NCBI RefSeq assembly: GCF_030269765.1
Contig: NZ_BSTX01000001.1
Location: 1,975,571 to 2,039,570 of the forward strand
From: Actinorhabdospora filicis
GTDB taxonomy: Bacteria; Actinomycetota; Actinomycetes; Mycobacteriales; Micromonosporaceae
Direction: 5' to 3'
DNA length: 64,000 nt
Under the pieces are notes generated by a model. It was not told the DNA's origin. It worked only from the letters and a program-made list of their open reading frames with translations, and did not search any database. The translations under genes and the position numbers were made by a program. This document shows positions 16,820 through 48,963 of the stretch, piece by piece; the first letter of the stretch is position 1, and each line of letters starts with the position of its first letter.

Positions 16820-16895
16820 GCTGGTGTGGCGCAATTGGCAGCGCAACCGCCTTGTAAGCGGTAGGTTGCGGGTTCGAGTCCCGCCACCAGCTCCA
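16820..16895 (+). tRNA. tRNA-Thr (anticodon UGU)
   Basis: Cloverleaf read directly: acceptor GCTGGTG/CACCAGC, D-stem GCGC, anticodon stem ACCGC/GCGGT with loop CTTGTAA, T-arm GCGGG-TTCGAGT-CCCGC, encoded CCA. Confidence 0.8.
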
Positions 16896-16963
16896 GGTTC
16901 ACTCGTGCCCGAGTGCCTTTTGAGCAGTGCCCTTTTGTGCCCGCCCACCCCCGGGAACCGAAT

Positions 16964-19690
16964 ATGAGATCAACGCTGCGCGCGTGCGTTTCGGCGCTCG
17001 CGCTGGCCGCCGTGTCCCTCGTCGTGGTGCCGGGGTCCGCCCTGGCCGAGCCGGTTCCGGCGACGGACGTGGAGATGGCCTTCCCCGCCGGCCCTCCCGT
17101 GGATCTCGTCGTGGACGACGCCCGCGGGCTCGTCTACCACGCCTCGCCGACCGGCCTGACCGTCCTCGACTTCGACGGCACCGTCCAGCGCACCATCGCC
17201 GGGAGCCTGCCGTGGCGGACGCTGACCATGAGCGCCGACGGTTCGCGGCTCTACGCGACGGCACGCTGGAAGAACGCGATCGACGTGATCGACACCGCGA
17301 CCTGGGAGCTGAGCACCGTCCGGCTCCCGGCCACCCACTGCCTGATCTCGGCCGAGTTCACCGGCGGCCTGCTCTGGTACTCGTACTTCACCTGCGGGAA
17401 CGGCAAGATCGGCTCGCTGGCGTCCTACGATCCCGCGACCGGGACGGTCACCGAATCGGGCCTGAGCGCACCGGCGGGCAACCTCACGGCGCTTCCCGGC
17501 CGTCCGGACCGCCTGGTGCAGCGAGACTGGAACGGCGAGAAGCAGCGACTCCGGATCTTCGACGTCTCCGGCGCTCCCCGCGAGGTGGCCGTCAGCTCGT
17601 TCCTCACCTCGCACTGCGGGGACGTGGCGCTCATCGACGGCGGCGAACGGCTGGCGCTGTCCTGCAATCGCGCCTACGACCTGGAGATCTTCGATACGGC
17701 GACCCTGACGTCGACCGCCACGAAGCTCACGGAGAACCACGGGGGGACACTCGCGGTGTCCCCCGACGGCGCGTACTTCGCCGTGGGAGGCCCGCTGAAC
17801 GGGCCGGGCACGCACGTCGAGATCGTGAAGGCCGCCGACATGTCGACGGTGCGGATCTACGACTACCCCGGGGCCGCCGGCTTCTACGAGCACCCGATGG
17901 CCTGGCTCGGCGACGGGCGGCTGATGACCTTCCACGGCAGCCGTCTTCGCCTGCATCTGGAACCGGCCAAGTACATCACCGACACCTACGCGGCGGCGCT
18001 GTGGAAGGCCGTCCCCTACGGCGAGGCCGCGGTCCTGAGGGGCTACGTGCGCGGCGGCCCGGACCGGGTCCGTGAACTCACCGTCACGCGTGAAGACCGG
18101 CTCGGGCGGCACCCACTCGGGCGACTGGCCACCGGCCTCCAGGGCGGATTCGAGTTCACCGACGCGGGAGCGCCGGTGTCCGGCAAGGCCACTTACACCT
18201 TCGACTTCGCCGGGGACGCCTACGGGACCGTCGCGAGCGTGTCCGTGACCGTCGCGACTCAGGCGGTTCCCTTCGACTTCAACGGCGACGGCATCGCCGA
18301 GGCCGTCGTCGGCACGCCCGGTGAGGATGACGGATCCATTACCGACACCGGCCAGGTGCACGTGTTCCCAACGACGACGGCCGGAGTGACCGCGGGTGGC
18401 AGCCTCGCGTTCGACCAGAGCTGGGCCGGTCTCGTCGGCGACAACGCCCCTGGGGACCGGCTGGGCGCGGCCACCGCGTCCGGTGACTTCAACGGCGACG
18501 GTTTCGCCGACCTCGCCATCGGTGCGCCCGGCAAGGACGCGTTCGGCGCGGCCGACTCCGGCGCCGTGATCGTCGCGTACGGTTCGGCGTCCGGCCTGAC
18601 CTCGGCCGGTTCGGTGATGCTGACACCCGACAACGCGCCCGGAGCGCTCACCGGGCACGCCTTGGCGGCCGCCGACTTCAACACCGACGGGATCGACGAA
18701 CTCGCGGTCGGCGCGCCCGGAACGGGATCGGGCACCGTGTACCTGTACACCGGGAATCCCTCCGGTCTCTCGAACCCGCATGCGCTGTACCAGAGCAGCG
18801 ACGAGATCCCCGGACGCGGCGGGGGCGGCAACGCCTTCGGCTGGTCCCTGGCCGCCGGGCGAGTGCAGGGTCCGCACGTCAACCCGGCTCTGGCGATCGG
18901 CGCGCCACAGGACAGGGAGGACGCCGAACGGTCCACCGGCTCGGTGACCGTCCTCTACGGCCTTCCCTTCCTGCCCGGTCAGACGGTGTCGAAGGCGCAG
19001 CGCTTCACGAAGGAGACGCCCGGCGTGCCGGGTACCGCAGGTCCGCACGATCCGAAGACCGGGGACGGCGCCGACGAATTCGGGCTCAAGGTCGCCATCG
19101 GCGACTTCAACGGCGACGGCGATGACGACCTCGCCGTCTCCGCCCCCGGCACCAACGTGACCAGCGGCGGCAAGAAGCGGGCCGACGCCGGATCGGTGAC
19201 GGTCCTCTACTCCGACGGGTACGAGATCGGCACCACCGGCGCCAAGGAGGTCACCCAGGACACCGACGGCATCGTCGGTCTCCCCTACGACAACGACTTC
19301 TTCGGCGACAACCTCGCCACCGGGGACACCAACGGCGACGGCGCCGACGAACTGGCGATCTTCTCCTACGGCGACGAGTACGTGACGATCACCCCGGGCG
19401 CCACCAGTGGCCTGGCCTTCACCTCGACGACCGCCTGGACTCAGGACTCACCCGGCATCCCCGGCTCGCACGAATCCGGCGACAAGTGGGGCGCGAGCCT
19501 GCGGTTCCTCACCGGCGCCAAGCCCGCGCTCCTGGTGGGCGCGCCGGGCGAGGACGACCGGCAGGGCGCGTTCACCGTCGTCTACATCGGGCCGAAGGGA
19601 CTGACGGGGGACGGCGCGCGGTACTTCGGGGAGGGCACACCGGGCGTACCGGGCGAGCCGGAGAACGGCGACGGGTTCGGGACCTTCTAG
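16964..19690 (+). CDS. secreted YVTN-propeller / Ig-like / FG-GAP-repeat protein (paralog L1)
   Basis: Signal peptide MRSTLRACVSALALAAVSLVVVPGSALA. N-terminal YVTN-type repeats (LYATARWKNAIDVIDTAT). C-terminal FDFNGDGxADxAxGAPGxD FG-GAP repeats. Conserved C-terminus ...GDGFGTF. Confidence 0.85.
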   Translation: MRSTLRACVSALALAAVSLVVVPGSALAEPVPATDVEMAFPAGPPVDLVVDDARGLVYHASPTGLTVLDFDGTVQRTIAGSLPWRTLTMSADGSRLYATARWKNAIDVIDTATWELSTVRLPATHCLISAEFTGGLLWYSYFTCGNGKIGSLASYDPATGTVTESGLSAPAGNLTALPGRPDRLVQRDWNGEKQRLRIFDVSGAPREVAVSSFLTSHCGDVALIDGGERLALSCNRAYDLEIFDTATLTSTATKLTENHGGTLAVSPDGAYFAVGGPLNGPGTHVEIVKAADMSTVRIYDYPGAAGFYEHPMAWLGDGRLMTFHGSRLRLHLEPAKYITDTYAAALWKAVPYGEAAVLRGYVRGGPDRVRELTVTREDRLGRHPLGRLATGLQGGFEFTDAGAPVSGKATYTFDFAGDAYGTVASVSVTVATQAVPFDFNGDGIAEAVVGTPGEDDGSITDTGQVHVFPTTTAGVTAGGSLAFDQSWAGLVGDNAPGDRLGAATASGDFNGDGFADLAIGAPGKDAFGAADSGAVIVAYGSASGLTSAGSVMLTPDNAPGALTGHALAAADFNTDGIDELAVGAPGTGSGTVYLYTGNPSGLSNPHALYQSSDEIPGRGGGGNAFGWSLAAGRVQGPHVNPALAIGAPQDREDAERSTGSVTVLYGLPFLPGQTVSKAQRFTKETPGVPGTAGPHDPKTGDGADEFGLKVAIGDFNGDGDDDLAVSAPGTNVTSGGKKRADAGSVTVLYSDGYEIGTTGAKEVTQDTDGIVGLPYDNDFFGDNLATGDTNGDGADELAIFSYGDEYVTITPGATSGLAFTSTTAWTQDSPGIPGSHESGDKWGASLRFLTGAKPALLVGAPGEDDRQGAFTVVYIGPKGLTGDGARYFGEGTPGVPGEPENGDGFGTF

Positions 19691-19807: not shown

Positions 19808-22516
19808 ATGAGAAAGCACGTGCCCTTGACCGTCCTCGCCGTCATCGCGGCGAGCCTCACGGTCCCGGCTGCGGCCTCGGCCGCCGACCGGTCGGACACC
19901 GTGACCCCGCTGCCTGCGGGCGACCATCGCGACATCGTCGTGGACGACGCCCGCGAGCGGATCTTCCTGGCCTCGGCTGATCCGGCGGCCGTGGTCATTG
20001 CCGGGTTCGACGGCGGGATCATCACGACCGTCACCGGGCTGACGTCGCCGGTGGACCTGGAACTCGCGCCGGGCGGGACGGCCGTCTACGCACTGGACGG
20101 CGGAACCCTCGCCCGGATCGACACCACGTCGTTCGCCGTCGACCACGTGACACTTCCGGCCTCACACTGCGCCGATTCGCTGGCCGTGACCGGCGGCAAG
20201 GTCTGGTACTCCTACCATCAGTGCGACGCGCCGGGCGAAGGCTCGATCGCCTCGTTCGAGCCCGGCACCGGGAAGGTCACCGAGAGCGGCCTCACGACTC
20301 GCCCCGGCCGCCTGCTCGCGCGAGCCGACCGCCCGGACCGGCTGGTGCGCTTGGACGAGGCCGGCGCCGACGTCTTCGACGTCTCCGGCGCCGCTGCGCA
20401 GAAGAAGGTGAGCAACGCCGAGCCGGGCTGCGGTGACGCGACCCTGCTCAGGCGAGGGGATCTCGTGCTCACCGCCTGCGGTGGGGACACCAGTCGCTTC
20501 CAGGTCTGGGCCACATCCGACCTGCTGTCGCGCGGCTCGACCTACCTCGGCGAGGAGACCGCCGTCGCGGCCTCCGCCGACGGCCGGTTCGCGGCCTTCG
20601 GCTTCGCCCGCTACCCGGGCGAGTTCGCCGTCCACGTGCGCGACCTGGGCGCCGACCTGTCGGGCGCGTACGTCCGCCGCTTCGAACTTCCCACCGACGC
20701 GGCCGTGACGCCCGGATCCCTCGCGTTCACCGGCGACGGCCGGCTCATCATCGTCCCGACGGCATCGGACGGGACGCGTTCCCTGCGCGTCTACGCCGAT
20801 CCCTTCACTCCGGACGCGGGCCTCACCGCCACCGGCCCCCGCAGGGTCCTTCCCGGCACGCCGATCACCATCACGGGAAAGGTCACCCCGGCACCCGGAC
20901 GCCCGGCCCTGCTGTCGCTGTCCCGGACCCGCAATGACCTCACCGAGTTCCTGCCCGGCGTGTCCACCGATGCCGACGGAAACTACTCGTTCACCGACGA
21001 CCCGCAGGGGTTCACCGGGCGTCTCCTCTACGAGGTCACCGCGTACAACGCCGACGGTTTCGGCGAGGTCAAGCGGTCGGTGCCCGTGGTCGCCCAGGTG
21101 CGTGCCTTCGACTTCAACGCCGACGGCTTCCCCGAGACCGTCACCGGCGCTCCCGGCGAGGACACCGGATCCAGCAAGGACACCGGGCAGATCACCGTCT
21201 TTCCCGGCGGCGCCAACGGCCCCGACCTGACCGCCGGGAAGATCTTCGACCAGGACACCCCCGGCGTGTCCGGCAGCAACGAGACCGGCGACCGCTTCGG
21301 TACCGCCCTCGCCTCCGGCGACTTCAACGGTGACGGCTACGCCGACCTCGCCGTCGGCTCGCCCACGGAGGACAACGACTCCTTCACCGACAGCGGCGCG
21401 ATCATCGTCCTCTACGGATCGTCCAGCGGCCTGAGCACCGAGTCGAACATGTTCGCCTCCGGCGCCCGCACCGGCTACCACCTCGGGCAGTCGCTGGTCG
21501 CACTCGACCTGGACGGCGACGGCATGGACGAGCTGGCCGCGGGCGCGCCCGGGTGGGACTCCGGCGCCGTCCTCGTCTATGAGCGACGCCACGCGTCCCG
21601 GCTACTCGACACCTGGGCCTTCCTCGACCAGGAGTACATGACGGGTGTCAACCACACCGGCGAGGGCTTCGGCTGGTCGCTGGCCACCGGCGACATCGAC
21701 GGCGACGGTCTCGCCGACCTGGCCATCGGCGCCCCTCAGGACACCGATGACAAGGGCTGGTCGACCGGCTCGGTGAGCGTTCTGTACGGCTCAAGGTCCG
21801 GCGTCAACTCACTCGGGGCGCAGCGGATCACCAAGGAGACCCCCGGTGTCCCCGGCTCCGCCGGTCCCCGCAACGCCGCCACCGGCGACGGCGCCGACGA
21901 GTTCGGGCTCAAGCTCGCCATGGGCGACTTCAACGGTGACGGCAGAGACGACCTCGCCGCCGCCGCGCCCGGCACGCACGTGAAGAACGCCGCCGGGACC
22001 GACCAGCCCGACGCCGGGTCGGTCACCGTCCTCTACTCGGACGGCGCCAAGCTCGGCACCACCGGAGCCACCGAGATCACCCAGCTGTCCGGGCCGGTCT
22101 TCGGCGCCCCCGCCGACAACGACTTCTTCGGCGACACCCTCGCCGCCGGAGACGCCAACGGCGACGGCACCGACGAACTGGCGATGTTCTCCTACGGCGA
22201 CGACCGCCTGTGGGTCACGCCGGGCTCCACCGCCGGGCTCCTGCTCGCCACGACCACCGCGTGGAACCAGGACACGCCGGGCATCCCCGGCTCGGCGGAG
22301 TCCGGCGACAAGTGGGGCTCAAGCCTGCGGTTCCTCGCCGGCACCAAGCCCGCCCTGCTCGTGGGCGCGCCGGGTGAGGACGCCCAGCAGGGCGCCTTCA
22401 CCGTCGTGTTCGGCGGTCCTTCGGGACTGACCGGGACGGGGGCGATCTACGTCGGCGAGGACACCCCCGGCGTCCCGGGCACCGCCGAGAACGGCGACAG
22501 ATTCGGGACCTTCTAG
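19808..22516 (+). CDS. secreted YVTN/Ig/FG-GAP protein (paralog L2)
   Basis: Signal peptide MRKHVPLTVLAVIAASLTVPAAASA. Same architecture as L1. Confidence 0.85.
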   Translation: MRKHVPLTVLAVIAASLTVPAAASAADRSDTVTPLPAGDHRDIVVDDARERIFLASADPAAVVIAGFDGGIITTVTGLTSPVDLELAPGGTAVYALDGGTLARIDTTSFAVDHVTLPASHCADSLAVTGGKVWYSYHQCDAPGEGSIASFEPGTGKVTESGLTTRPGRLLARADRPDRLVRLDEAGADVFDVSGAAAQKKVSNAEPGCGDATLLRRGDLVLTACGGDTSRFQVWATSDLLSRGSTYLGEETAVAASADGRFAAFGFARYPGEFAVHVRDLGADLSGAYVRRFELPTDAAVTPGSLAFTGDGRLIIVPTASDGTRSLRVYADPFTPDAGLTATGPRRVLPGTPITITGKVTPAPGRPALLSLSRTRNDLTEFLPGVSTDADGNYSFTDDPQGFTGRLLYEVTAYNADGFGEVKRSVPVVAQVRAFDFNADGFPETVTGAPGEDTGSSKDTGQITVFPGGANGPDLTAGKIFDQDTPGVSGSNETGDRFGTALASGDFNGDGYADLAVGSPTEDNDSFTDSGAIIVLYGSSSGLSTESNMFASGARTGYHLGQSLVALDLDGDGMDELAAGAPGWDSGAVLVYERRHASRLLDTWAFLDQEYMTGVNHTGEGFGWSLATGDIDGDGLADLAIGAPQDTDDKGWSTGSVSVLYGSRSGVNSLGAQRITKETPGVPGSAGPRNAATGDGADEFGLKLAMGDFNGDGRDDLAAAAPGTHVKNAAGTDQPDAGSVTVLYSDGAKLGTTGATEITQLSGPVFGAPADNDFFGDTLAAGDANGDGTDELAMFSYGDDRLWVTPGSTAGLLLATTTAWNQDTPGIPGSAESGDKWGSSLRFLAGTKPALLVGAPGEDAQQGAFTVVFGGPSGLTGTGAIYVGEDTPGVPGTAENGDRFGTF

Positions 22517-22529
22517 GCCCATTACACCC

Positions 22530-22566
22530 AACCGGCCGCGATCACCCAGAGTGATCGCGGCCGGTT
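22530..22566 (+). terminator. hairpin after L2
   Basis: AACCGGCCGCGATCAC-ccaga-GTGATCGCGGCCGGTT. Paralogous to the L1 hairpin. Confidence 0.55.
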
Positions 22567-22636: not shown

Positions 22637-25411
22637 ATGCGCAAACGCGTGCCCGCGATCCTCGCCGCCCTGACCGTGGTGGCGGCGGGTCTCATCACCA
22701 TCGTCCCGGCGAGCGCCGAGGCCGCGGAACCCGCGAACGCGGTACCGGCCGATAGAGCGGTCCGTCTGCCGGGCGGCACGTTCACCGCGCTCGGCGATGA
22801 CACCGCACACGGACGGATCTATATCGCCCTGAACAATCCGGACGCGGTGGCGGTGGCCCGGACCGATGGCACGCTGGCCACGACCATCACCGGCGTGACG
22901 CGGCCGTCCGAACTCGTCGTGGCCCCGGACGGCGCGACCGTCTACGCCATCGAGAGCGGCTCGTCCTCCTTCGCGCGGGTGGACACCGCGACGAACGCCG
23001 TCGACCGGGTGCTCCTTCCGGAAACCCACTGCCCTGAATCGGCGACGTTCACGGGCGGGCGACTCTGGTACTCCTACCGTGTATGCGGCGCCGAGACACG
23101 ATCGCTGGCCTCCTACGACCCGGCTTCCGGCGCGATCACCGAAAGCGGTGTGAACGTTGCTGCAGGCGACGTGCGCGCGCTGCCGCAGCGTCCGGAACGG
23201 TTGCTGGTCCTGAGCGCGGCGGCCGATGGTGGCATGCGGGTTTATGACGCCACGCGGGACACGCCGATTGAGGTGGCTCGCACGGACCGGGGCGGCTGCT
23301 TCGCCGCCACCTTCATCAACGGTGGCGACGCGGTCATCGCGACCTGCGCCGGCTCCAACGCGCATCCGGTGTACCTCACGGCCGACCTTACGACCGACCA
23401 GTCCATCTCCGACGACACCGCGACTTCGGCGGCGGTGTCGGCCAGCCCCGACGGGAAGAACATCGCGGTCGCTTCGAGGACCTGGAACGCCGCGAGCCAG
23501 ACGATCCGTATTCGCTCGATCGGAAACGGGCTTCCCGGCGAATCCGTCCGGAGCTACACGGCTCGCGACCTGGCGCCGGAGAGCGTCGTCCTCACCGACG
23601 GCTCGATGCTCCTCATCGTCGACGCTTCGGCCACCAATCACCCGCTCCTGCGCATCCATAAGGCCCCGTATCACCGGGTGACCTTCATCGACGCCAGATC
23701 CGCCATCGCGCCCATCGACTACCACGGCACCGCGAGGCTGTCGGGGACTCTGATGTCCTGGGACGGGAACTGGCGCAGCAGCCCGCTGGCCGCGGGCACG
23801 ATCCGCGTATGGCGCTCCGACCGCACCGGCGCCCGTGCCGTGGGAACGGCCTCCGTGGGCCCGGACGGCACCTTCGCCTTCGACGATCCGGCCGGGGCGG
23901 TGACCGGGCAGATCGTCTACACCTTCTCCTTCGACGGCGATGAACGCCACCTCAGGTCCAGCGGGAGCCAGTCCGTGATCGTCCGCCCGGTCCCCTTCGA
24001 CTTCGACGGTGACGGCCGCGCCGACGGGGTGAGCGGCGCGCCCTGGGAGGACACCGGCCGGTCCACGGACACCGGACAACTGCACGTCTTCCCCGCCGGT
24101 GCCAAGGGCCTGGATCTCGGCGCGGGCAGGATCTTCGATCAGGACACCCCGGATGTCTCCGGGAGCAACGAGACCGGCGACCGCTTCGGCTCGTCCTTCG
24201 CTTCGGGAGACTTCGACGCCGATGGCTTCGCCGACCTCGCCGTCGGTGTGCCCGGTGAGGACAATGACGCCTATCGCGACGGCGGTGCCGTAATCCTCCT
24301 CTACGGCTCCGTGTACGGGCTGACCTCGCGTTCCCGGATGCTCGCCCGGGATGTCGCCGGGGCGGAGTTCGGGCGTTCTCTCGCCGCGGGCGACTTCGAT
24401 GGTGATGGGGCGGCCGATCTCGCCGTCGGCGCACCGGGAGAAGGCTCCGGACGAACCTTCGTGTACGCCGGAAGCCGTGGCGGCGGGATGGACACGACGG
24501 CACGCGTGGCCCTGGGCCAGGGCCTCGGTCAACGGCCCGTTCCAGGGGCGAGCTACACCGGCGATCACTTCGGCTGGTCCCTCGCCACCGGCGACATCAA
24601 CGGGGACGGACGATCCGATCTCGTCGTGGGTACACCGCACGATCGCGATGACACCGATGCCCCCACCGGATCGGTGACCGTGCTCTACGGACGCGCCGAA
24701 ACGGCGTTCCTCACCTCCGACGGCGCACAGTGGATCTCGAAGGAGACGGCCGGGGTCCCGGGTGCCGCCGGACCGGCGAATCCGAAGACGGGCGACGGTT
24801 CCGACGAGTTCGGGCTCAAGGTCGCGATGGGCGACTTCAACGGTGACGGTAAGGACGACCTGGCCGTCGCCGCGCCCGGCGCACATGTGAAGAACGCGGC
24901 CGGGAAAGACCAGCCGGACGCTGGAACCGTGACCGTCCTCTACTCGGACGGCGCCAAGCTCGGCACCACCGGAGCCACCGAGATCACCCAGCTGTCCGGG
25001 CCGGTCTTCGGCGCCCCCGCCGACAACGACTTCTTCGGCGACACCCTCGCCGCCGGAGACGCCAACGGCGACGGCACCGACGAACTGGCGATGTTCTCCT
25101 ACGGCGACGACCGCCTCTGGATCGCCCCGGGCTCACCCAAGGGCCTCGACATCGGCGCGACGGCCATGTGGAGCCAGGACACACCGGGCGTCCCGGGTTC
25201 GGCGGAATCCGGCGATAAGTGGGGATCCAGCCTGCGTTTCCTCTCCGGGGACACGCCCCTTCTGCTGGTCGGCGCACCCGGCGAGGACGACCGGCAGGGC
25301 GCGTTCACCGTCATCCGGGGCCTTTCGGGCACGGGCGCGGTGTTCGTCGGCGAGGACTCGCCGGGGGTTCCGGGCACCGCCGAGAAGGGCGATGGGTTCG
25401 GGACGTTCTGA
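22637..25411 (+). CDS. secreted YVTN/Ig/FG-GAP protein (paralog L3)
   Basis: Signal peptide MRKRVPAILAALTVVAAGLITIVPASAEA. Upstream region similar to the L2 promoter region. Confidence 0.85.
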   Translation: MRKRVPAILAALTVVAAGLITIVPASAEAAEPANAVPADRAVRLPGGTFTALGDDTAHGRIYIALNNPDAVAVARTDGTLATTITGVTRPSELVVAPDGATVYAIESGSSSFARVDTATNAVDRVLLPETHCPESATFTGGRLWYSYRVCGAETRSLASYDPASGAITESGVNVAAGDVRALPQRPERLLVLSAAADGGMRVYDATRDTPIEVARTDRGGCFAATFINGGDAVIATCAGSNAHPVYLTADLTTDQSISDDTATSAAVSASPDGKNIAVASRTWNAASQTIRIRSIGNGLPGESVRSYTARDLAPESVVLTDGSMLLIVDASATNHPLLRIHKAPYHRVTFIDARSAIAPIDYHGTARLSGTLMSWDGNWRSSPLAAGTIRVWRSDRTGARAVGTASVGPDGTFAFDDPAGAVTGQIVYTFSFDGDERHLRSSGSQSVIVRPVPFDFDGDGRADGVSGAPWEDTGRSTDTGQLHVFPAGAKGLDLGAGRIFDQDTPDVSGSNETGDRFGSSFASGDFDADGFADLAVGVPGEDNDAYRDGGAVILLYGSVYGLTSRSRMLARDVAGAEFGRSLAAGDFDGDGAADLAVGAPGEGSGRTFVYAGSRGGGMDTTARVALGQGLGQRPVPGASYTGDHFGWSLATGDINGDGRSDLVVGTPHDRDDTDAPTGSVTVLYGRAETAFLTSDGAQWISKETAGVPGAAGPANPKTGDGSDEFGLKVAMGDFNGDGKDDLAVAAPGAHVKNAAGKDQPDAGTVTVLYSDGAKLGTTGATEITQLSGPVFGAPADNDFFGDTLAAGDANGDGTDELAMFSYGDDRLWIAPGSPKGLDIGATAMWSQDTPGVPGSAESGDKWGSSLRFLSGDTPLLLVGAPGEDDRQGAFTVIRGLSGTGAVFVGEDSPGVPGTAEKGDGFGTF

Positions 25412-25422
25412 ACGTCACGCCG

Positions 25423-40470: not shown

Positions 40471-40480
40471 CTCTCCGGCG

Positions 40481-40513: not shown

Positions 40514-40517
40514 CGCT

Positions 40518-43190
40518 TTAGAACGTGCCGAAGAGATCGCCGTTCTCGGCGGCTCCGGGCACGCCCGGGGAGTCCTCGCCGAAGTAGGTCGCGCCGGTGC
40601 CGGTGAGCCCGCCGGATCCGATGTAGACGACGGTGAACGCGCCCTGCCGGTCGTCCTCGCCCGGCGCGCCCACCAGGAGGGCGGGCTTGGCGCCGGACAG
40701 GAAGCGCAGGCTCGCGCCCCACTTGTCCCCGGCCTCCTGCGAGCCCGGGATCCCGGCCGTCTCCTGGCTCCACCACACGCTCGCGCCGGAACTGAGGCCC
40801 GTGGCGGTACCGGGGATCACCGAGAGGTACTCGTCGCCGTAGGAGAACACCGCCAGGTCGGCGCGACCGTCCCCATTGGAGTCACCGGCGGCGAGGTTGT
40901 CGCCGAAGAAGTCGTTGTCGCCGGGCAGCCCGACGATGCCGGGGGTGTCCTGGGAGATCTCGGCGGCCCCGGCGGTGCCCAGCTTGGACCCGTCGGAGTA
41001 GAGGATCGTGACCGTCCCGGCGTCGGTGACACCACTGACCAGGCTGCCGGGCGCGGAGGCGGCCAGGTCGTCGCGTCCATCGCCGTTGAAGTCGGCCAGC
41101 GCCACTTCCAGGCCGAACTCGTCGGCACCGTCCCCTGTGGACGGCTCGTACTTCCCGGCCGTACCGGGGACGCCCGGTGTCTCCTTGGAGATCCGCTGCC
41201 TGGGATCGACCGGCAGCCCGTTGCGGCCACCCTTGTAGACCAGCACCGCACCGGTCGACCAGCCCTTGTCGCCGGTGTCGCCGGGCGCGCCCACCGCCAG
41301 GTCGTCGAAGTGATCACCGTCGATGTCACCGGTGGCCAGGGACCAGCCGAAGCGCTCCCCGGCGACCGGGTCGCCCACCGGCCGCAGCCACGTCTTCCAC
41401 ACCGGACCAGTCGGCGTGCCCGAGTAGACCTCGACCCCGCCGCCGGACGTGCCGGGCGCACCCAGGGCGATGTCGTCGCGCCCGTCGCCGTCGAAGTCAC
41501 CGGCCGCCAGGGACCAGCCCAGCGTCAGCCGGGCCGCGGCCCGCGACCAGATCGAGGTGGAGCCCATGGTGGCCAGTCCGTTCGCCGAGCCGTAGAGGAT
41601 CTCGGCCATCCCCGACTCCGCCGCGCCGTCGCTCTCACCGGGCGCGGCCACCGCCAGGTCGGCGTAACCGTCGCCGTTGAAGTCGCCGGAGGCCAGCGCC
41701 CGCCCGAGCATGTCACCGTCCTCATTGGACCCGTCGAGGCCCGGCGTGTTCTGGTCCAGCGCCCGCGAACCCGTCACGGTCACCCCCGAGGCCGTCCCCG
41801 CGAACACGTGGAACTGGCCGGTGTCGGTGGCGTCCCCGGTGTCCTCATCCGGCGTGCCCACCGCCACGTCGGCGTAGCCGTCGGCATTGAAGTCCCACGG
41901 CACCGGCCGCACCGTCACCGTCGCCGTCCACGTCGCCGGGCGGTGCCCGGCGTCCCCGGCGTAGTCGAGGGTGAAGCGGATCGGGCCGGTCAGGCGTCCC
42001 GGGTCGTGCCGGAACGCGAAGGTCCCGTCGGCGGCGGTGGTCACCGTGCTCCGGTAGGTGCCCGAGCCGTCGACGCGGGTCAGCGCCAGCGGGACCGCCC
42101 CGCCCGGGCCGCGCTTCAGCGTCCCGCTCACGTCGAAGGCGCTCTTGTACTCCACCGCCGCCGGTGCCGTGACCTCGATGGACGGCAGGTACGTCCCGGC
42201 GTCGCCCAGCACGAACAGCTTCACCTCGGCCGTCGCCGGATCGCCGCCCAGCGCCAGGATCCGGCCGTCGCCGGTGAAGGCGATCCGGGCCGGCTCCACC
42301 GCGTCCGGCATCGCGTACCGCCGGTTCTCGGCACCCGGCAGCCCGCCGGACACGTCGACCACCGACAGCGCCGCCCGCTCACCGCTCCCGTCGTAGACCG
42401 CCAGGTGCCGCCCGTCCGGGCTCACCGCCACGTCCCACGGCTCGACCACAGTGGACAGCGGCGCGGGATCGCTCAAACCCGGCGCGCGGTACACCGTCAG
42501 CGAACCCGCCGCGCCCGAGCGGACCGCGACCTGGCCGGTGAGCGGCAGGTAGGCCGCGCCGTCGCAGCAGTCCTCACCGGTGAGCTCACCCTTCTGCACC
42601 GGCGTTCCGCCGGTCACGTCGTACAGCGCGACCTTTTCGTAGGGCGCGAGCACGAGCAGCCGCCCCGGCCCCGCCGGGGACAGGCTCACGCCGGTGGGCA
42701 GCGAGAGTCCACTGTCGACGAACGCGCCGGTGGCGGGATCCAGCGAGCCCAGCCCGCCCGCGTAGCTCTGGCAGTCGTGGAAGCCGAACCAGAACCGGCC
42801 CCCGCTGAACGCGCCCGCGTCCGGGCACACCGACTCCGGCAACCCCACCTGCCGGATCGCCAGGGAGGCGGCGTCGATGACCTGCACCCGCGCCTGATCG
42901 CTCTCGATGACGTACACAGTGGACCCGTCGCCGCCGAGGGCGAGCGAGCGCGGCCAGGCCAGCTCGGCGAACGAGCGCTGCACAACGCCGTCCAGGCCCA
43001 CGACGGCGACGGAGTTCCCCGCCGCCACGAAGACCCGCTGCCGGGCGGCGTCCAGCACGAAGTCCGAGCTGTCGGCGGGCAGCGCCACGGCCGTGTAGCC
43101 GGGATCCTCGGCCACGGCGGCGGGCGGGGCGATCAAGAGAGCGGTGGCCAAGGCCAGCGCGGAGACTGTGGCATGGGTGCGCGGTGACAT
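40518..43190 (-). CDS. secreted YVTN/Ig/FG-GAP protein (paralog R1)
   Basis: Start trimmed to MSPRTHATVSALALATALLIAPPAAVA (GGGAG RBS). Same architecture and C-terminus ...GDLFGTF. Confidence 0.8.
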   Translation of the reverse strand: MSPRTHATVSALALATALLIAPPAAVAEDPGYTAVALPADSSDFVLDAARQRVFVAAGNSVAVVGLDGVVQRSFAELAWPRSLALGGDGSTVYVIESDQARVQVIDAASLAIRQVGLPESVCPDAGAFSGGRFWFGFHDCQSYAGGLGSLDPATGAFVDSGLSLPTGVSLSPAGPGRLLVLAPYEKVALYDVTGGTPVQKGELTGEDCCDGAAYLPLTGQVAVRSGAAGSLTVYRAPGLSDPAPLSTVVEPWDVAVSPDGRHLAVYDGSGERAALSVVDVSGGLPGAENRRYAMPDAVEPARIAFTGDGRILALGGDPATAEVKLFVLGDAGTYLPSIEVTAPAAVEYKSAFDVSGTLKRGPGGAVPLALTRVDGSGTYRSTVTTAADGTFAFRHDPGRLTGPIRFTLDYAGDAGHRPATWTATVTVRPVPWDFNADGYADVAVGTPDEDTGDATDTGQFHVFAGTASGVTVTGSRALDQNTPGLDGSNEDGDMLGRALASGDFNGDGYADLAVAAPGESDGAAESGMAEILYGSANGLATMGSTSIWSRAAARLTLGWSLAAGDFDGDGRDDIALGAPGTSGGGVEVYSGTPTGPVWKTWLRPVGDPVAGERFGWSLATGDIDGDHFDDLAVGAPGDTGDKGWSTGAVLVYKGGRNGLPVDPRQRISKETPGVPGTAGKYEPSTGDGADEFGLEVALADFNGDGRDDLAASAPGSLVSGVTDAGTVTILYSDGSKLGTAGAAEISQDTPGIVGLPGDNDFFGDNLAAGDSNGDGRADLAVFSYGDEYLSVIPGTATGLSSGASVWWSQETAGIPGSQEAGDKWGASLRFLSGAKPALLVGAPGEDDRQGAFTVVYIGSGGLTGTGATYFGEDSPGVPGAAENGDLFGTF

Positions 43191-43328
43191 GGCTTCTCCC
43201 TCAGGCCTGCCGGTGACCGTAGGTGCACTACGGGCACAGCGAAGCTCGCCCATGTGAATGGACGTGCGCCACGCCGTGAAAAAGGGCCGCCCCTGAGGAG
43301 ACGGCCCTTTCACTATCGGTATTCGAGG

Positions 43329-46037
43329 TCAGAAGGTGCCGAAACGGTCACCGTTCTCCGGCTCGCCCGGAACACCCGGCGTCCCCTCGCCGAAGTACTG
43401 CGCACCCTCGCCGGTGAGCCCGTTCCGTCCGATGTAGACGACGGTGAACGCGCCCTGCCGGTCGTCCTCGCCCGGCGCGCCGACCAGAAGAGCAGGTTTG
43501 GCGCCACCGAGGAAGCGCAGGCTCGCGCCCCACTTGTCCCCGGACTCCTGCGAACCCGGGACGCCCGGCGAATCCTGGCTCCACCACACGCTCTTGCCGA
43601 AGGCGAGGCCGTCGACCGAGCCCGGGATGACGGAGAGGTAGTCGTCGCCGTAGGAGAAGAGCGCCAGATCGGCGATCCCGTCGCCATTGGAGTCACCGGC
43701 GGCGAGGTTGTCGCCGAAGAAGTCGTTCTCGCCGGGAAGGCCGACGATGCCGGGGGTGTCCTGGCTCATCTCGAAAGCCCAGTCGGTACCGATGCGCGAG
43801 CCGTCGGAGTACAGGACGGTCACCGTCCCGGCATCGGTCACACCGTTCACCGCGCTGCCGGGGGCGGACGCGGCGAGATCGGCCTTGCCGTCACCGTTGA
43901 AGTCGGCGAGGACGACCTTCAGGCCGAACTCGTCGGCGCCGTCACCGGTGCGGGGTTCGTACTTGCCAGGTGAGCCGGGGACGCCGGGGGTGTTCTTGGT
44001 GATGCGCTGGACGTCGTCGCCGAGCCCGCCAGCATCGCCTTGGAACAAGTAGACCGCACCCGTCGACCAGCCCTTGTCCTGTGCATCGCCGGGCACGCCC
44101 ACCGCGAGGTCGTCGCGGCCATCCTGATCAACGTCTCCGGTTGCCAGCGACCAGCCGAATCTGTCACCGAGGGCCTGCTCTCCGCCGGTGTCGTACTCCG
44201 ACAGCTGCATGCGCCAGGCCAGGCCCGTGGGGGTGCCGTGGTACACGCGGACGCGTCCGCCGAAGTCGCCCGGCAAGCCGACGGCGAGGTCGGAGACGCC
44301 GTCGCCGTCGAAGTCCCCGGCGGCCAGCGACGAGCCCAGCCAGTCGTGGGTGTACTTCCCTTCCGGCCACAAGGAACCGGAGCCGCTCGTGGTGAGCCCG
44401 GCGGCCGATCCGTACAAGATCTCCACCATGCCGGAGTCGGCGGTGGTGTCGTCTTCGCCCGGCGCGCCGACGGCGAGGTCGGCGTAGCCATCGTCATTGA
44501 AATCCCCGGACGCGGTGGCCTGCCCGAGCCGGTCGTCGGCCTCGTTGGTGCCGTCCACGCCGGGCGTGTTCTGGTCCATCGCACGAGAACCGGACGCGGT
44601 GACGCCCGAGGCGGTGCCGTAGAGGACGTGGAACTGCCCGGTGTCGGTGGTGCGCCCGTCGTCTTCGCCGGGGGTGCCCACGACGACGTCGGTGTACCCG
44701 TCGCCGTTGAAGTCCCAGGCGGTGGGCCGGACGGTGACCTTGCCGGTCCACCTGGCCGCCGCGTGCTCGGCGTCGCCCGCGTAGGTGATCCTGTACTCGG
44801 CCGAGCCGGTCACGTCGGCCTTCTCGGCGAAGGTGAAGGAACCGTCCGGCGCGGTGGTGACCGTGCTCTGCCGCGTCCCGGCACGGGTGACACGGGTGAC
44901 CGTCACGGTCGCGCTCACGTCGATCCCCTTCACCACACCGGTCAGCGTCACGCTCTCCCGGTGCCCGACCCGGGCGGGTGCGGTGGCGGTGATGGACGTG
45001 GCGGCCTTCGTGGCGTCGCGCATGACGAAGATCGTCGGGGTCCGGGTGTTCCATTCGGTGCCCGCGGCCAGGACGGTGCCGTCGGCGCCGGCGATGACCC
45101 GCCGCGCGTCCATCACCGGGCCGGGCAGGACGTATTCGCGCAGCAGCTCACCGGGCGTGCCGGAGGTCAGGTCGCGCACGCCGACGGCGGCGGAGATGCC
45201 CTCCGTGCGCAGGACCGCCAGGAACCGGTGGTCCGGGCTGACGTCCACGCCCAACGCGCGGTCGTGCTCCGCCATCCGGCGCGGCGCGGCGGTCAGGTCG
45301 TTCGCCGAGTACAGCGCGAGGGCCGTTCCGTCCCCGGGCACCACGGCCACCTCGTCGGTCTTCGGCAGCGCGATCGAGGTTCCGCGCCAGGAACCGCCCG
45401 CGATGGTGCCGAGCACGACGGGAGCCGTTCCCGAGACGTCGATCAGCTCCTGGCCATAAGGCAGGGAGGCGTGGACGAACACCAGCCGGTCCGGCCGGTC
45501 GGGCAGCGCGCGCAGCTCGGTGGCCAGCCCGAGTGAGAGCCCGCCGTCGGTGACCGTACCGGTGGCGGGATCGTAGGACGCGAATCCCGTCCCGGCCCGC
45601 CCGCACTTCTGGTAGTCGAACCAGAGGCGCCCACCGGTGAACACGCTCCGGTTCGGGCAGATCGAGGGGTCGAGAGCCACGCTGCTCTTGGCGTAGGTGA
45701 CGGTGTCGATCACGTTGAGGCGGGGCTTGCCCTCATCGAGGGTGTAGAGGGTGTTCCCGTCGGCGCTCAGACTGAGGCTGCTCGGGAACCCGAGGCCGCC
45801 GGTGATCTCCTTGACCTTCGTACCGTCGAGATCGCGGATGAACACCCAGCCCGCCTCCGCGGTGAGGATGTGCTGCCGTGCCGCGTCATAGGCGAAGTCG
45901 GCGTAGCCGAGAGGGAACGGGATGGAGGTGATCCCGGCATCGGGTACCTCCGCCACCGCCTGCGGTGCGCCGATGAGCACACCGGCGAGAACGGCGAGCG
46001 CCGCCAGGAGGGCGCGCACGCGCGTGCGTCTGTTCAT
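43329..46037 (-). CDS. secreted YVTN/Ig/FG-GAP protein (paralog R2)
   Basis: Signal peptide MNRRTRVRALLAALAVLAGVLIGAPQAVA. C-terminal half very similar to R1. Confidence 0.85.
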   Translation of the reverse strand: MNRRTRVRALLAALAVLAGVLIGAPQAVAEVPDAGITSIPFPLGYADFAYDAARQHILTAEAGWVFIRDLDGTKVKEITGGLGFPSSLSLSADGNTLYTLDEGKPRLNVIDTVTYAKSSVALDPSICPNRSVFTGGRLWFDYQKCGRAGTGFASYDPATGTVTDGGLSLGLATELRALPDRPDRLVFVHASLPYGQELIDVSGTAPVVLGTIAGGSWRGTSIALPKTDEVAVVPGDGTALALYSANDLTAAPRRMAEHDRALGVDVSPDHRFLAVLRTEGISAAVGVRDLTSGTPGELLREYVLPGPVMDARRVIAGADGTVLAAGTEWNTRTPTIFVMRDATKAATSITATAPARVGHRESVTLTGVVKGIDVSATVTVTRVTRAGTRQSTVTTAPDGSFTFAEKADVTGSAEYRITYAGDAEHAAARWTGKVTVRPTAWDFNGDGYTDVVVGTPGEDDGRTTDTGQFHVLYGTASGVTASGSRAMDQNTPGVDGTNEADDRLGQATASGDFNDDGYADLAVGAPGEDDTTADSGMVEILYGSAAGLTTSGSGSLWPEGKYTHDWLGSSLAAGDFDGDGVSDLAVGLPGDFGGRVRVYHGTPTGLAWRMQLSEYDTGGEQALGDRFGWSLATGDVDQDGRDDLAVGVPGDAQDKGWSTGAVYLFQGDAGGLGDDVQRITKNTPGVPGSPGKYEPRTGDGADEFGLKVVLADFNGDGKADLAASAPGSAVNGVTDAGTVTVLYSDGSRIGTDWAFEMSQDTPGIVGLPGENDFFGDNLAAGDSNGDGIADLALFSYGDDYLSVIPGSVDGLAFGKSVWWSQDSPGVPGSQESGDKWGASLRFLGGAKPALLVGAPGEDDRQGAFTVVYIGRNGLTGEGAQYFGEGTPGVPGEPENGDRFGTF

Positions 46038-46110
46038 GTGTCTTCCGGGGGTGTGGGCATCAAGAAGGGCGAGCCCGATCTTATCCCCGGTCGATCTTGC
46101 CCGGCACGGC

Positions 46111-46140
46111 GAAGGCCGCCCGCCGAAGCGGGCGGCCTTC
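46111..46140 (-). terminator. hairpin after R3
   Basis: GAAGGCCGCCCGC-cgaa-GCGGGCGGCCTTC, 13-bp GC stem just downstream of the R3 stop. Confidence 0.6.
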
Positions 46141-46152
46141 GTCCATCACCTG

Positions 46153-48891
46153 CTAAAACGTCCCGAACCGGTCCCCGTTCTCCGGCTCGCCCGGCACGCC
46201 CGGCGTCCCTTCACCGAAGTACTGCGCGCCGTCCCCGGTCAACCCGTTCGGCCCGACCCACACCACGGTGAACGCACCCTGCCGGGAGTCCTCCCCCGGC
46301 GCGCCCACCAGCAGCGCCGGCCTCGCACCCCCGAGGAAGCGCATGCTCGCGCCCCACTTGTCGCCGCTCTCATGCGAGCCGGGGATGCCGGGTGAGTCCT
46401 GGGTCCAGGCCGTGGTCGAGGTCAGTGCGAGGCCGCCGGGGGCGCCGGGGGTCACGGTCACGTATTCGTCGCCGTAGCTGAAGATGGCCAGGTCGGACAC
46501 GCCGTCGCCGTTGGAGTCACCGGCGGCGAGGTTGTCGCCGAAGAAGTCGTTGTCGTAGGGCAGGCCGATGATGCCGTCGGTGTCCTGGGTGATCTGGATG
46601 GAGCCGTCGGCGCTCAGTTCGGTGCCGTTGGAGTACAAGACGGTCACCGAGCCGGCGTCGGCCTGGTCGCCGAGGCGGGTTCCGGGCGCGGACGCGGCGA
46701 GGTCGGCCAGGCCGTCGCCGTTGAAGTCGCCCATCGCGACCTTGAGCCCGAACTCGTCGGCGCCGTCGCCGGTGCGGGGCTCGTACTTGCCGGGGGCGCC
46801 GGGGACGCCGGGGGTGTCCTTCGAGACGCGCTTGACGCGGTCGGTCCACAGGCCCCACTGGTCGGCGTGGACGATGACGACGGCGCCGGTGGACCAGCCC
46901 TTGTCCTCGTTGTCTCCGGGGATGCCGATGGCGAGGTCGGCGTAGCCGTCGGCGTCGATGTCACCGGTGGCCAGGGACCAGCCGAAGCGTTCGCCGGCGT
47001 CATCGGTCGTGGTGGGGAAGCCCTGGCCGCCCTGCCACATGACGCGGTCGAGGCGGAAGCCGGTGGGCGTGGAGAGGTAGGCGAAGACGGCGCCGCCGAT
47101 GCCTGCCTGGGGCGCGCCGACGGCGAGGTCGTCGAGTCCGTCGCCGTTGAAGTCGCCGGAGGCGAGGGCGCGGCCGTAGGCGCCGTGGAAGTACCACTCC
47201 TGCCACAGGGACGTCGAGGCGGTCGTGGTGAGCCCGGCGGCGGAGCCGTAGAGGACCTCGACCATGCCCGCGTCGGTCCAGTCGCCGTCGTCCTCGCCGG
47301 GCGCGCCGACGGCGAGGTCGGCGTAACCGTCGCCGTTGAAGTCGCCGGAGGCGGTGGCCTGCCCGAGCATGTCGCCGGGCTCGTTGGCCCCGTCGACGCC
47401 GGGCGTGTTCTGGTCCATGGCGCGGGATCCGGACGCGGTCACGCCCGTGGCGGTGCCGTAGAGGACGTGGAACTGGCCGGTGTCGGTGGTGCCGCCGTCG
47501 TCCTCGCCGGGGGTGCCCACGACCGCGTCGGTGTAGCCGTCGCCGTTGAAGTCCCAGGGCAGGGTGCGCAGCTGCGTCGAGCCGGTCCAGGTGGAGGGCT
47601 CATGGGCGGCGTCCCCGGCGTAGGACACCGTGAAGGTGACTCGCCCGGCCAGCCCGGTGCCGTCGAAGGGGAACGCGAAGGTGCCGTCGGCGGCGGTGGT
47701 GATGGTGCTCAGGTGGGTTCCGGCGCGGTCGGTGCGGGTGACCGACAGGACCGTTCCGGCGCCGGGGCCGCGGTCGAGGCCGCCGGTGACCTCGAAGGAC
47801 GCGCCGTGCTTCGCCACGGTGGGCACGGTGGCCTTGATGCGCGTGTCGTAGACGGTCGCGTTGTTCAGCACGAACATCGACGCGTCGGAGGTGTCGTAGT
47901 TGTAGCCGCTGACCACGATCCGGCCGTCACCGGTGAACAGCAGCCGGTAGCTCGGGGAGAAGTCCTCGGGCAGCTGGTACACGCGCAGCAGCTCACCGGG
48001 CGTCCCGGCGAGCAGGTCGCGGACGGCGACCGTCGCCGACCGGCCGTGCCACTCCAGCACCGCCAGGTAGCGGCGGTCGGGGCTGATCTCGACCGTCACG
48101 GGGTCGGCGTGCTCGGCGACGCGGACCGGCTCGGCCGACAGGTCACCGGCCGGGTAGATCGCCAGGGGCGAGGAGTCCCACAGGACGACGGCGAGCTCAT
48201 CGGTGGCCGGGAGCGGGATCGCCGTGCCGCAGCAGTTCACGTCGGGGATGGAGTCGAGTTCGACCGGCGTTCCGGAGGTCACGTCGAAGAGCATCGGCCC
48301 GTACGGCGCGTAGCCGCGGATGAAGACGAGCCGGCCGGGGCTCTCCGGGAGAGCCCGGATGTCCAGGGCCAGGCCGACTTTCGCGTGGCCGTCGGTGAAC
48401 TGCCCGGTGGCGGGGTCGAGGGAGCCGAGTCCGACGCCCTCGCCGTAGCAGCGGATGAAGGCGAACCAGAGCCTGCCGCCGGTGAACGTCGCCTCATAGG
48501 GGCACACGTTCGGGATGGGGAAGAACTTCACCGCGAAGGTGGTGGTGTCGAGGGTTCCCACGCGTTCGCGGTACTGCTCCAGGACGTAGAGGGTCTTCCC
48601 GTCGGGGCTGAGGGTCAGCGACCGCGGGTCGTCGAAGGCGGTGACGGTCCTCTGTACGGACCCGTCGAGCCTGACGACGCTGATCACATCGTGCGCGGCC
48701 ACGAAGATCCGCTGGTGGAGGGTGTCGTAGGCCGCGTCGCGCACTTCGGTCGGGAAGGGCGCCTCGGTGTAGGGCGGCGGTTCCTCGGCGGCGGCAGACG
48801 GGTCGGCCGTCGCGGCGGCCGGGGCGAGCACGAGGGCGACGGTGGACAGTAAAGCGGCGACGGCGAAGCGCACGCCAAAGCGTCGGTTCAT
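46153..48891 (-). CDS. secreted YVTN/Ig/FG-GAP protein (paralog R3)
   Basis: Start trimmed to MNRRFGVRFAVAALLSTVALVLAPAAATA. C-terminal third nearly identical to L1 (TTAWTQDSPGIPGSHESGDKWGAS). Confidence 0.85.
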   Translation of the reverse strand: MNRRFGVRFAVAALLSTVALVLAPAAATADPSAAAEEPPPYTEAPFPTEVRDAAYDTLHQRIFVAAHDVISVVRLDGSVQRTVTAFDDPRSLTLSPDGKTLYVLEQYRERVGTLDTTTFAVKFFPIPNVCPYEATFTGGRLWFAFIRCYGEGVGLGSLDPATGQFTDGHAKVGLALDIRALPESPGRLVFIRGYAPYGPMLFDVTSGTPVELDSIPDVNCCGTAIPLPATDELAVVLWDSSPLAIYPAGDLSAEPVRVAEHADPVTVEISPDRRYLAVLEWHGRSATVAVRDLLAGTPGELLRVYQLPEDFSPSYRLLFTGDGRIVVSGYNYDTSDASMFVLNNATVYDTRIKATVPTVAKHGASFEVTGGLDRGPGAGTVLSVTRTDRAGTHLSTITTAADGTFAFPFDGTGLAGRVTFTVSYAGDAAHEPSTWTGSTQLRTLPWDFNGDGYTDAVVGTPGEDDGGTTDTGQFHVLYGTATGVTASGSRAMDQNTPGVDGANEPGDMLGQATASGDFNGDGYADLAVGAPGEDDGDWTDAGMVEVLYGSAAGLTTTASTSLWQEWYFHGAYGRALASGDFNGDGLDDLAVGAPQAGIGGAVFAYLSTPTGFRLDRVMWQGGQGFPTTTDDAGERFGWSLATGDIDADGYADLAIGIPGDNEDKGWSTGAVVIVHADQWGLWTDRVKRVSKDTPGVPGAPGKYEPRTGDGADEFGLKVAMGDFNGDGLADLAASAPGTRLGDQADAGSVTVLYSNGTELSADGSIQITQDTDGIIGLPYDNDFFGDNLAAGDSNGDGVSDLAIFSYGDEYVTVTPGAPGGLALTSTTAWTQDSPGIPGSHESGDKWGASMRFLGGARPALLVGAPGEDSRQGAFTVVWVGPNGLTGDGAQYFGEGTPGVPGEPENGDRFGTF

Positions 48892-48963
48892 GAAATCCCC
48901 GTTGAGGATGGGCAATGGGCAAGGGCGAACGCCATGTTAATCCCGCCCGTCCACCGGGGGAAC

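Follow-up and report, generated by a model that had tools for sequence, protein, structure and literature searches.

Integrin alpha-type FG-GAP beta-propellers are described by the Pfam family PF01839 and fall within the VCBS/FG-GAP supercluster of propellers (PMC8023676). Six FG-GAP paralogs of ~900 amino acids (aa) are encoded in a 64,000-nucleotide (nt) stretch of Actinorhabdospora filicis DNA (RefSeq assembly GCF_030269765.1, contig NZ_BSTX01000001.1, forward-strand positions 1,975,571 to 2,039,570; this whole stretch is referred to as the window), where they form two convergent triplets, L1 to L3 on the + strand beside a tRNA-Thr(UGU) gene and R1 to R3 on the - strand. Exact protein matches assign this high-GC DNA to A. 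filicis, of the family Micromonosporaceae. The locus resembles the tandem arrays with interlocus gene conversion known from bacterial multigene families in that its genes are monophyletic, head-to-tail cassettes with their own leader and hairpin, have a mosaic phylogeny along the gene, and include one tract that is identical between neighbours (185 nt, L2/L3). It differs from them in that two convergent arrays occupy two intergenic sites with essential-looking core genes between them, that its copies have diverged far (45-57% identity), and that exchange is confined to the conserved 3' end. As in tRNA-associated genomic islands, the left block begins right on the 3' side of a tRNA gene (tRNA-Thr), and relatives lack it there; unlike such islands, it comes with no integrase, attachment-site (att) repeat, or compositional deviation, the genes between the arrays are backbone, and the second block lies away from any tRNA gene. 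An earlier note on the window had described a mirror-symmetric region running from the tRNA gene to a two-component system and had suggested that the whole of it could be an old island.

With fairly high confidence, the region is read here as conserved backbone plus two separate, facing tandem triplets of ~8.5 kb each (16896 to ~25526 and 40471 to 48963), produced by old local paralog expansion with patchy exchange, and not as one unit. Comparison loci of ~60 kb were retrieved from Phytomonospora endophytica, Phytomonospora sp. NPDC050363, and one metagenomic relative, and were mapped onto the window with tblastx and blastn; the contig of the metagenomic relative spans only msiK to ccsB and informs the R site and the right flank. 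The backbone consists of a sugar operon, tRNA-Thr, the DUF3686-flotillin operon, msiK, UbiD/UbiA, and the two-component system. In both Phytomonospora genomes tRNA-Thr(UGU) was located at the matching position using ARAGORN, and the left flank, the whole centre, and the right flank are collinear with the window and oriented as in it. The gene order there is sugar operon, DeoR, HAD, further genes, aminotransferase, amino-acid permease, and DUF6528 on the left; tRNA-Thr(UGU), a ~100-aa gene, two small genes, DUF3686, flotillin, a 207-aa gene, msiK, MarR, UbiD, and UbiA in the middle; and a 134-aa gene, HSP70, response regulator, kinase, Rce1-like, MFS, PadR, HAAS, and ccsB/ResB on the right. Cluster lookups gave orthologues at 90% identity or more in both species for UbiD, flotillin, and the DeoR gene upstream of the tRNA.

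The two paralog blocks fall into well-defined gaps of this order. The ~100-aa gene lies 130-250 bp past the tRNA gene in Phytomonospora, and its homologue in the window (25557-25832, 76-78% nucleotide identity by blastn) lies past L3; since this gene adjoins the tRNA in the relatives, the left triplet stands precisely between the two. The right triplet is flanked by UbiA and the response regulator, a position held by the 134-aa gene and HSP70 in all three relatives, and genes of 147 and 172 aa are found near the L site in relatives. No FG-GAP gene was present at either site in the ~60 kb stretches of the two Phytomonospora genomes or on the contig of the metagenomic relative. The central segment (25860-40470) is conserved backbone and not cargo: the flotillin operon, msiK, the MFS/MarR/reductase genes, and the mqn genes are at the centre as the earlier note had it, and it is only their status as cargo that synteny contradicts. 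The 207-aa/flotillin/DUF3686 trio was also kept in 76-80 of 80 actinomycete loci from many families, with 65-77% identity, and none of these 80 loci had an FG-GAP neighbour (the survey comprised the best 80 loci of a DUF3686 contig scan; the source genome and Phytomonospora are outside those 80).

Relationships among the six genes were examined in trees of their codon alignment and in outgroup trees that included 20 outside full-length family members obtained by an exhaustive HMMER search. The HMMER profile was used in place of a word-indexed protein search with L1, which was saturated by FG-GAP low-complexity words and returned only L1, R2, and five propeller-only proteins. In the six-gene trees, alignment columns 0-800 separated (L1,L2,L3) from (R1,R2,R3) with 100% bootstrap, and L1 joined R3 (93%) only in columns 800-953. 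Support in the outgroup trees is given in Table 1. Their monophyly supports the origin of the six genes from one founder, and the split into L and R clades over 84% of the length agrees with a single old ectopic copy in inverted orientation and later tandem duplications at either site.

Table 1. Bootstrap support for groupings in trees with outgroups, by aligned segment
Grouping	All columns	Residues 1-760	Residues 761-908
Six monophyletic	100%	92%	100%
R clade	100%	100%	0%
L clade	61%	81% (100% without outgroups)	0%
R2+R3	93%	95%	0%
L1+R3	0%	0%	99%
L2+L3	100%	98%	100%
R1+R2	6%	3%	82%
L1 + all three R genes	35%	7%	77%

Over the whole length, R1, R2, and R3 are 54-57% identical to one another, L2 and L3 are 51% identical, and L1 is 45-48% identical to the others. 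The earlier note had taken the outermost genes as the most similar pair. The peptide that it cited, TTAWTQDSPGIPGSHESGDKWGAS, does occur in both L1 and R3, and the pairing is real for the last ~150 residues, but over the whole length L1 is closer to R2 (47.6%) than to R3 (46.5%), and across residues 1-760 the two do not pair, an outcome that the note had named as counting against its scheme. The link between L1 and R3 is restricted to the last ~16% of the genes, and it does not argue for the outer genes as the oldest pair. Of the inner pairs that had been proposed, L2/L3 stands throughout, whereas R1/R2 is recovered only in the last ~150 residues, and R2/R3 is otherwise the closest right-hand pair (57.1%). 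The idea of an inverted duplication followed by tandem duplications broadly fits the monophyly and the L and R clades, although the outer-pair argument made for it does not hold. Mirror symmetry likewise applies to gene number and orientation but not to gene-by-gene pairing; the pairs expected of a palindromic duplication, L2-R2 and L3-R1, were never recovered in the segment trees. A true palindromic (mirror) segmental duplication was ruled out by the L and R clades and the absence of L1+R3 over residues 1-760.

No inverted repeat within 16-50 kb is longer than that formed by the L1 and R3 3' ends, and L1 is a mosaic, with a body that groups with the L clade and an R-type 3' ~450 nt. The topology thus changes along the gene as expected of conversion, with L1+R3 rising from no support over residues 1-760 to near-complete support over residues 761-908. 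Ten residues are exclusive to L1 and R3 among the six proteins; six of them are derived relative to the outgroups (D768, Y775, T820, S821, H836, and D883) and four are also common in the outgroups, whereas the exclusive residues of non-partner pairs number 0-2 derived and 0-1 ancestral-like. The dS (synonymous divergence) of L1/R3 in the 3' segment is unremarkable (0.43). These features would be explained by an ancient exchange of ~150 codons whose synonymous sites have since been re-randomized: the donor would be R-type because the L1 end groups with the R genes, and the exchange would be ancient because a synonymous-site signal is missing. An identity tract that includes synonymous sites is present for L2/L3 and not for L1/R3. 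The 185-nt tract of 100% identity in L2 and L3 lies inside a 326-nt tract of 93% identity and reads unmistakably as recent tandem gene conversion between neighbours; by this signature, L2/L3 is the only pair that appears to have undergone recent conversion.

Each paralog is followed directly past its stop codon by a GC-rich, terminator-like hairpin of 11-19 bp, with z-scores against shuffled sequences of -5.4 to -7 for five of the six and -2.9 for the one past R2. These hairpins came from folding, as a consensus promoter and terminator scan yielded nothing useful in this high-GC DNA. A leader motif of ~50 nt upstream of the ATG is common to all six paralogs, including L1 directly past the tRNA. 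The shared leader and hairpin imply that the duplicated unit was the whole gene together with its leader and terminator. The hairpin past L3 also contains an 11-nt match, CCGAAACGGCC, to the post-tRNA spacer of Phytomonospora sp., which is too short to interpret.

The age of the duplications was gauged from dS. Backbone orthologues of A. filicis and Phytomonospora gave values of 0.29-0.69 (the DUF6528 and amino-acid permease rows were left out as frame artefacts of coordinates), and the paralogs gave 0.54-1.2 in the gene body and 0.38-0.62 at the 3' end, the paralog values being probably inflated by diverged codons that are hard to align. On these figures the duplications appear old, comparable to or older than the split of the two genera. 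Sequence change in the family is fast, with only ~45-50% identity for putative orthologues of the two Phytomonospora species. A gain in the A. filicis lineage is favoured by the sequence comparison because the relatives have other conserved genes in both slots, because no Phytomonospora copy nests in the six-gene clade, and because the Phytomonospora copies are dispersed single genes. In the history proposed, one founder copy would have given rise to an ectopic inverted copy 15-24 kb away, and each of the two would then have been triplicated in place. The copies would have diverged strongly, above all in the N-terminal propeller, while the 3' end remained well conserved and was subject to occasional gene conversion, long ago between the arrays (from an R3-like donor into L1) and recently between L2 and L3.

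Several points weigh against this account. The paralog dS equals or exceeds that of orthologues between the genera, so the copies may predate the split. No outgroup with tRNA-Thr beside DUF3686 was found in other Micromonosporaceae and other actinomycetes, and for lack of an outgroup that conserves the synteny, gain in A. filicis and loss in Phytomonospora are not formally polarized; the comparison also rests on one genome of the genus Actinorhabdospora. With outgroups, the grouping of L1 with L2/L3 is only moderately supported (61-81%). The fraction of identical codons in L1/R3 (0.71) lies within the range of the other pairs (0.63-0.77) and gives no synonymous-site signal, and the case for conversion between L1 and R3 is drawn from phylogenetic incongruence and shared derived residues and not from a preserved tract. 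A permutation test supported several conversion tracts, but it ignores rate variation along the gene and its p-values are optimistic. The function proposed below comes from fold similarity only.

Among the alternatives, the one that deserves most attention is that the common ancestor of Actinorhabdospora and Phytomonospora already carried both triplets, which the Phytomonospora lineage then lost by deletion at the two sites. This is unlikely, though the dS relation given above speaks for it, as does the distance between the L and R clades, which nearly equals that to the Phytomonospora family members. It would need two separate clean deletions at slots that are now filled by other conserved genes (134 aa and HSP70 at the R site in three relatives, 147/172 aa near the L site), it sits poorly with the finding that none of the five Phytomonospora family members nests in the six-gene clade, and the dS comparison is weakened by the speed at which the family evolves and the probable inflation of the values. 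Slightly less probable still is the view that the 3'-end tree is the true history, with L1/R3 oldest, then L2/L3 and R1/R2, and with the body clades made by homogenization of neighbours, or that L1/R3 similarity is ancestral retention or parallel selection. The lack of a synonymous-site excess and the four residues shared with outgroups speak for it, as does the conversion between tandem neighbours that happens here (L2/L3). Homogenizing 760 codons on both sides, however, needs far larger or more events than one exchange of ~150 codons; the bodies are highly diverged (31-57% identity) with no recent homogenization visible; the six other exclusive residues are derived; the L1+R3 node keeps its 99% with outgroups; and conversion is expected where identity is highest, i.e. 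at the 3' end.

Two further readings concern the region as a whole and were rejected. The earlier note had suggested that all 32 kb between tRNA-Thr and the two-component system could be an old genomic or fitness island that had inserted at the tRNA, bounded by the inverted paralogs and carrying the centre as cargo. The L block does start directly at the 3' side of the tRNA gene, the next gene in the relatives follows the tRNA at only ~130-250 bp, and the region's longest inverted repeat is that of the outer genes; only the left block, however, is next to a tRNA gene. Relatives without the paralogs have the centre and both flanks collinear at the same tRNA, so that not the whole segment but only the two triplets are absent there, with the central 14.6 kb and the flanks present, and the DUF3686-flotillin trio is near-universal in actinomycetes. 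The note had also held that conservation of the entire region at this tRNA would mark it as core genome, and this is what was found for all but the two triplets. Its statement that no integrase or clear att repeat is present was borne out: Pfam scans of all substantial open reading frames (ORFs) in 16.8-49 kb gave no integrase, recombinase, or other mobility gene, and the tRNA 3' end (25-mer and 18-mer, up to 3 mismatches) had no match near 25.5 kb or near 48.9 kb, where the note had recommended a search for a direct repeat. A k-mer comparison of the junctions gave no shared repeats and no remnant of an insertion sequence or terminal inverted repeat, and composition is native, with GC of 0.70-0.74 and GC at third codon positions of 0.85-0.95, within the range of neighbouring genes. 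The island is thus given hardly any credence, and equally little is given to a single six-gene tandem array that was split by an inversion with a breakpoint inside it, which moved three inverted copies beyond the centre. Such an event would naturally yield two oppositely oriented arrays, but relative to both flanks the centre is oriented as in Phytomonospora, so that a second, exactly reverting inversion would be required, and a crossover between L1 and R3 predicts an L1 body that groups with R1/R2 and an R3 body that groups with L2/L3, the opposite of what was seen. Expansion at two sites of a conserved segment is preferred over all of these.

Coordinates of the features are collected in Table 2. 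The layout given in the earlier note proved accurate: both triplets read toward the centre, the likely ATG of L1 is 68 nt 3' of tRNA-Thr (69 nt in the note), and the response regulator and histidine kinase lie directly beyond R3. The inner ends of the arrays (L3 to R1) are 15 kb apart, and the stop codon of R1 is 47 nt from that of UbiA. The ATG of R3 lies 72 nt downstream of the stop codon of the response regulator on the same strand, and the spacer between them (48892-48963) is unstructured (z = -0.5). Transcription of the two-component operon may run on into R3, and the R array may be under the control of the two-component system; HSP70 and the 134-aa gene fill that downstream slot in the relatives.

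Table 2. Features of the window, in order of position
Feature	Position	Strand	Remarks
tRNA-Thr(UGU)	16820-16895	+	ARAGORN; the one tRNA gene found; left edge of L block
L1, FG-GAP/YVTN double-propeller paralog, 908 aa	16964-19690	+	Signal peptide; identical to Afil01_18990
Left arm of longest inverted repeat (L1 3' end)	19180-19690	+	511 nt, 83% to 46153-46663
Perfect GC-rich hairpin past L1	19701-19735	+	
L2 paralog, 902 aa	19808-22516	+	
Identical tract, L2 copy	22025-22209	+	185 nt, 100% to L3
Hairpin past L2	~22530-22566		
L3 paralog, 924 aa	22637-25411	+	
Identical tract, L3 copy	24932-25116	+	185 nt
Hairpin past L3	~25422-25459		
Small conserved gene, ~107 aa	25527-25850	+	Right edge of L block; orthologue lies ~130-250 bp past tRNA-Thr in Phytomonospora
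DUF3686/DUF7902/AAA, 1653 aa	25860-30821	-	
Flotillin, 692 aa	30864-32942	-	
207-aa gene	32981-33604	-	
MsiK	33831-34937	-	
MarR	35058-35558	-	
MFS	~35555-37009	-	
FMN reductase	36880-37494	-	
MarR-like	37510-38010	-	
UbiD (menaquinone gene)	38082-39539	+	
UbiA/MqnP (menaquinone gene)	39565-40470	+	
Bidirectional hairpin common to R1 and UbiA	~40477-40517		
R1 paralog, 890 aa	40518-43190	-	
Hairpin past R2, weaker	~43276-43313		
R2 paralog, 902 aa	43329-46037	-	Identical to Afil01_19140; used for structure model
Hairpin past R3	~46110-46141		
R3 paralog, 912 aa	46153-48891	-	
Right arm of longest inverted repeat (R3 3' end)	46153-46663	-	
LuxR-type response regulator	~48964-49620	-	Conserved backbone; right edge of R block
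HisKA_3 kinase	~49602-51200	-	Conserved backbone, beside response regulator

Each paralog is predicted to encode a secreted protein composed of a signal peptide, a YVTN/YncE-type propeller, an Ig-like domain, and an FG-GAP (integrin-alpha-like) propeller. The Pfam FG-GAP model matched all six proteins in 4-6 stretches each (E = 1e-36 to 1e-50; 123-167 bits against a cut-off of 22.1), and, for the YVTN/YncE-type part, Pfam propeller models stayed below their cut-offs. In profile searches of the PDB, the C-terminal half matched integrin alpha head domains (E ~1e-28), and the N-terminal part matched the Methanosarcina S-layer fragment 1L0Q (YVTN + PKD, E = 8.8e-25) and YncE (3vgz, E = 4.9e-14). 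An AlphaFold2 model of R2, built on a 26-sequence family alignment, was confident, with a mean predicted local distance difference test score (pLDDT) of 89.4 and a predicted template modeling score (pTM) of 0.78, and was all-beta except for the signal-peptide helix. Foldseek aligned this model with integrin alphaV/alpha4 (8xek, 6om2, and 3v4p; E = 1e-14 to 1e-12, root-mean-square deviation 4.6-5.7 A, 454-486 columns) and with 1L0Q (E = 5e-14, 441 columns). Six ~66-nt repeat units in each R gene at the DNA level correspond to six of the seven FG-GAP blades, the seventh being inferred from the model.

As in integrin alpha chains, the C-terminal ~460 residues would form a seven-bladed propeller with DxDxDG-type calcium motifs, and sequence and fold match the alphaV, alpha4, and alpha5 head domains; unlike those chains, the proteins are bacterial and secreted, have no thigh or calf domains, transmembrane segment, or beta-subunit partner, and carry an extra N-terminal YVTN propeller and Ig-like domain. 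The N-terminal ~440 residues resemble M. mazei 1L0Q (tandem YVTN + PKD) and E. coli YncE in having a YVTN-type propeller with an Ig/PKD-like domain after it. They differ in that identity is ~14% and the propeller is fused here to an FG-GAP propeller, and an S-layer or DNA-binding role is not evidenced here. The calcium motifs (e.g. DFNGDGYAD) are conserved, and calcium or ligand binding is putative. The paralogs end in a conserved GDxFGTF, and none of the six has a C-terminal transmembrane or sortase signal. Variability is concentrated in the N-terminal propeller (31-45% identity, against 65-84% in the last third).

From this architecture, a likely role is extracellular calcium-dependent binding of a surface or polymer ligand, with paralogs that differ in their N-terminal heads; the set would likely represent a repertoire of extracellular ligand- or surface-binding proteins, the N-terminal head being variable and the C-terminal propeller conserved. 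It is a good deal more speculative, and rather improbable, that the facing arrays are a maintained diversity repertoire in which selection keeps the N-terminal propellers different, 3' modules are exchanged between arrays without risk of deleting the essential genes between them, and the R array is transcribed by read-through from the LuxR-type two-component system, which also controls it. A functional tie of the arrays to the enclosed flotillin/DUF3686 membrane operon is a further possibility. PADLOC gave no match for the central trio or the FG-GAP proteins, and NCBIfam gave only sub-threshold matches.

The nearest relatives of the six proteins are FG-GAP proteins of the two Phytomonospora species, in which the five family members are dispersed single copies, and of metagenome-assembled Micromonosporaceae genomes. 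A decayed second copy may survive in P. endophytica as two short FG-GAP ORFs of 86 and 161 aa (15021-15808 of the retrieved stretch), 2.3 kb downstream of a single family gene. In uncultured Micromonosporaceae, the family occurs in same-strand tandem arrays of six genes (contig Ga0497539_000010; 5969-22739 of stretch L172) and of two genes (contig DASUSI010000046; 4410-10169 of stretch L173), both beside an RNase T-like gene. These genes form a clade of their own (92%), with cross-contig orthologue pairs at 72-76% identity and paralogs at 47-60%. They share domain architecture and length with the A. filicis genes and likewise keep several divergent copies (47-60%) side by side over the long term, but they run in one direction, lie beside the RNase T-like gene, and belong to a separate clade, whereas the A. 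filicis expansion is split into facing halves. A metagenome scan with the single generic motif GDFNxDG[YF][AP] returned only matches to the FG-GAP half (30-43% identity) and was uninformative on arrays.

Judged from these sequences, long-lived arrays of divergent copies appear to be a recurrent habit of the double-propeller family, of which the A. filicis case would be an independent instance. The latter is unusual only in its split into two facing halves and otherwise belongs to a known and fairly ordinary behaviour, lineage-specific paralog expansion with gene conversion. The case offers a correction to a striking, mirror-like layout beside a tRNA gene, which is better read as an old local gene-family expansion at two sites of a conserved chromosome segment, and it takes a comparison with relatives to establish an island from tRNA adjacency and inverted paralogs. 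On the positive side, and modestly, an uncharacterized secreted Micromonosporaceae family (YVTN + Ig-like + FG-GAP) appears to form long-lived divergent arrays repeatedly; the recurrence suggests selection for varied extracellular binding proteins. The family could merit a functional look, and no long-standing question is opened by it.

The backbone is collinear overall, with local remodelling at 33831-38010. There, the orientation of msiK is inverted relative to Phytomonospora, and a MarR-MFS-FMN reductase module (35058-37494) replaces the inositol monophosphatase, MarR, and NmrA-like genes of Phytomonospora. DUF3686 and flotillin are separated in P. endophytica by a prophage-like block of ~22 kb (contig JACHGT010000021; 1-11400 of retrieved stretch L174 and 1-1600 of L081), which includes portal, S78 protease, capsid protein, tail, DUF5047, and 'minor tail protein' genes; the DUF3686-flotillin operon interrupted in this genome is contiguous in 79 other actinomycete loci with both genes. 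In the outer parts of the window, strongly negative AT skew (-0.18 to -0.24) was recorded at 11000-13200, and a 512-aa ORF (11825-13363, +) had no Pfam match, Phytomonospora having DUF3263, acetyltransferase, and epimerase genes around that position. On the other side, the HAAS-domain gene and ccsB are separated by ~2 kb of genes (~54100-56000) to which nothing corresponds at that place in Phytomonospora.

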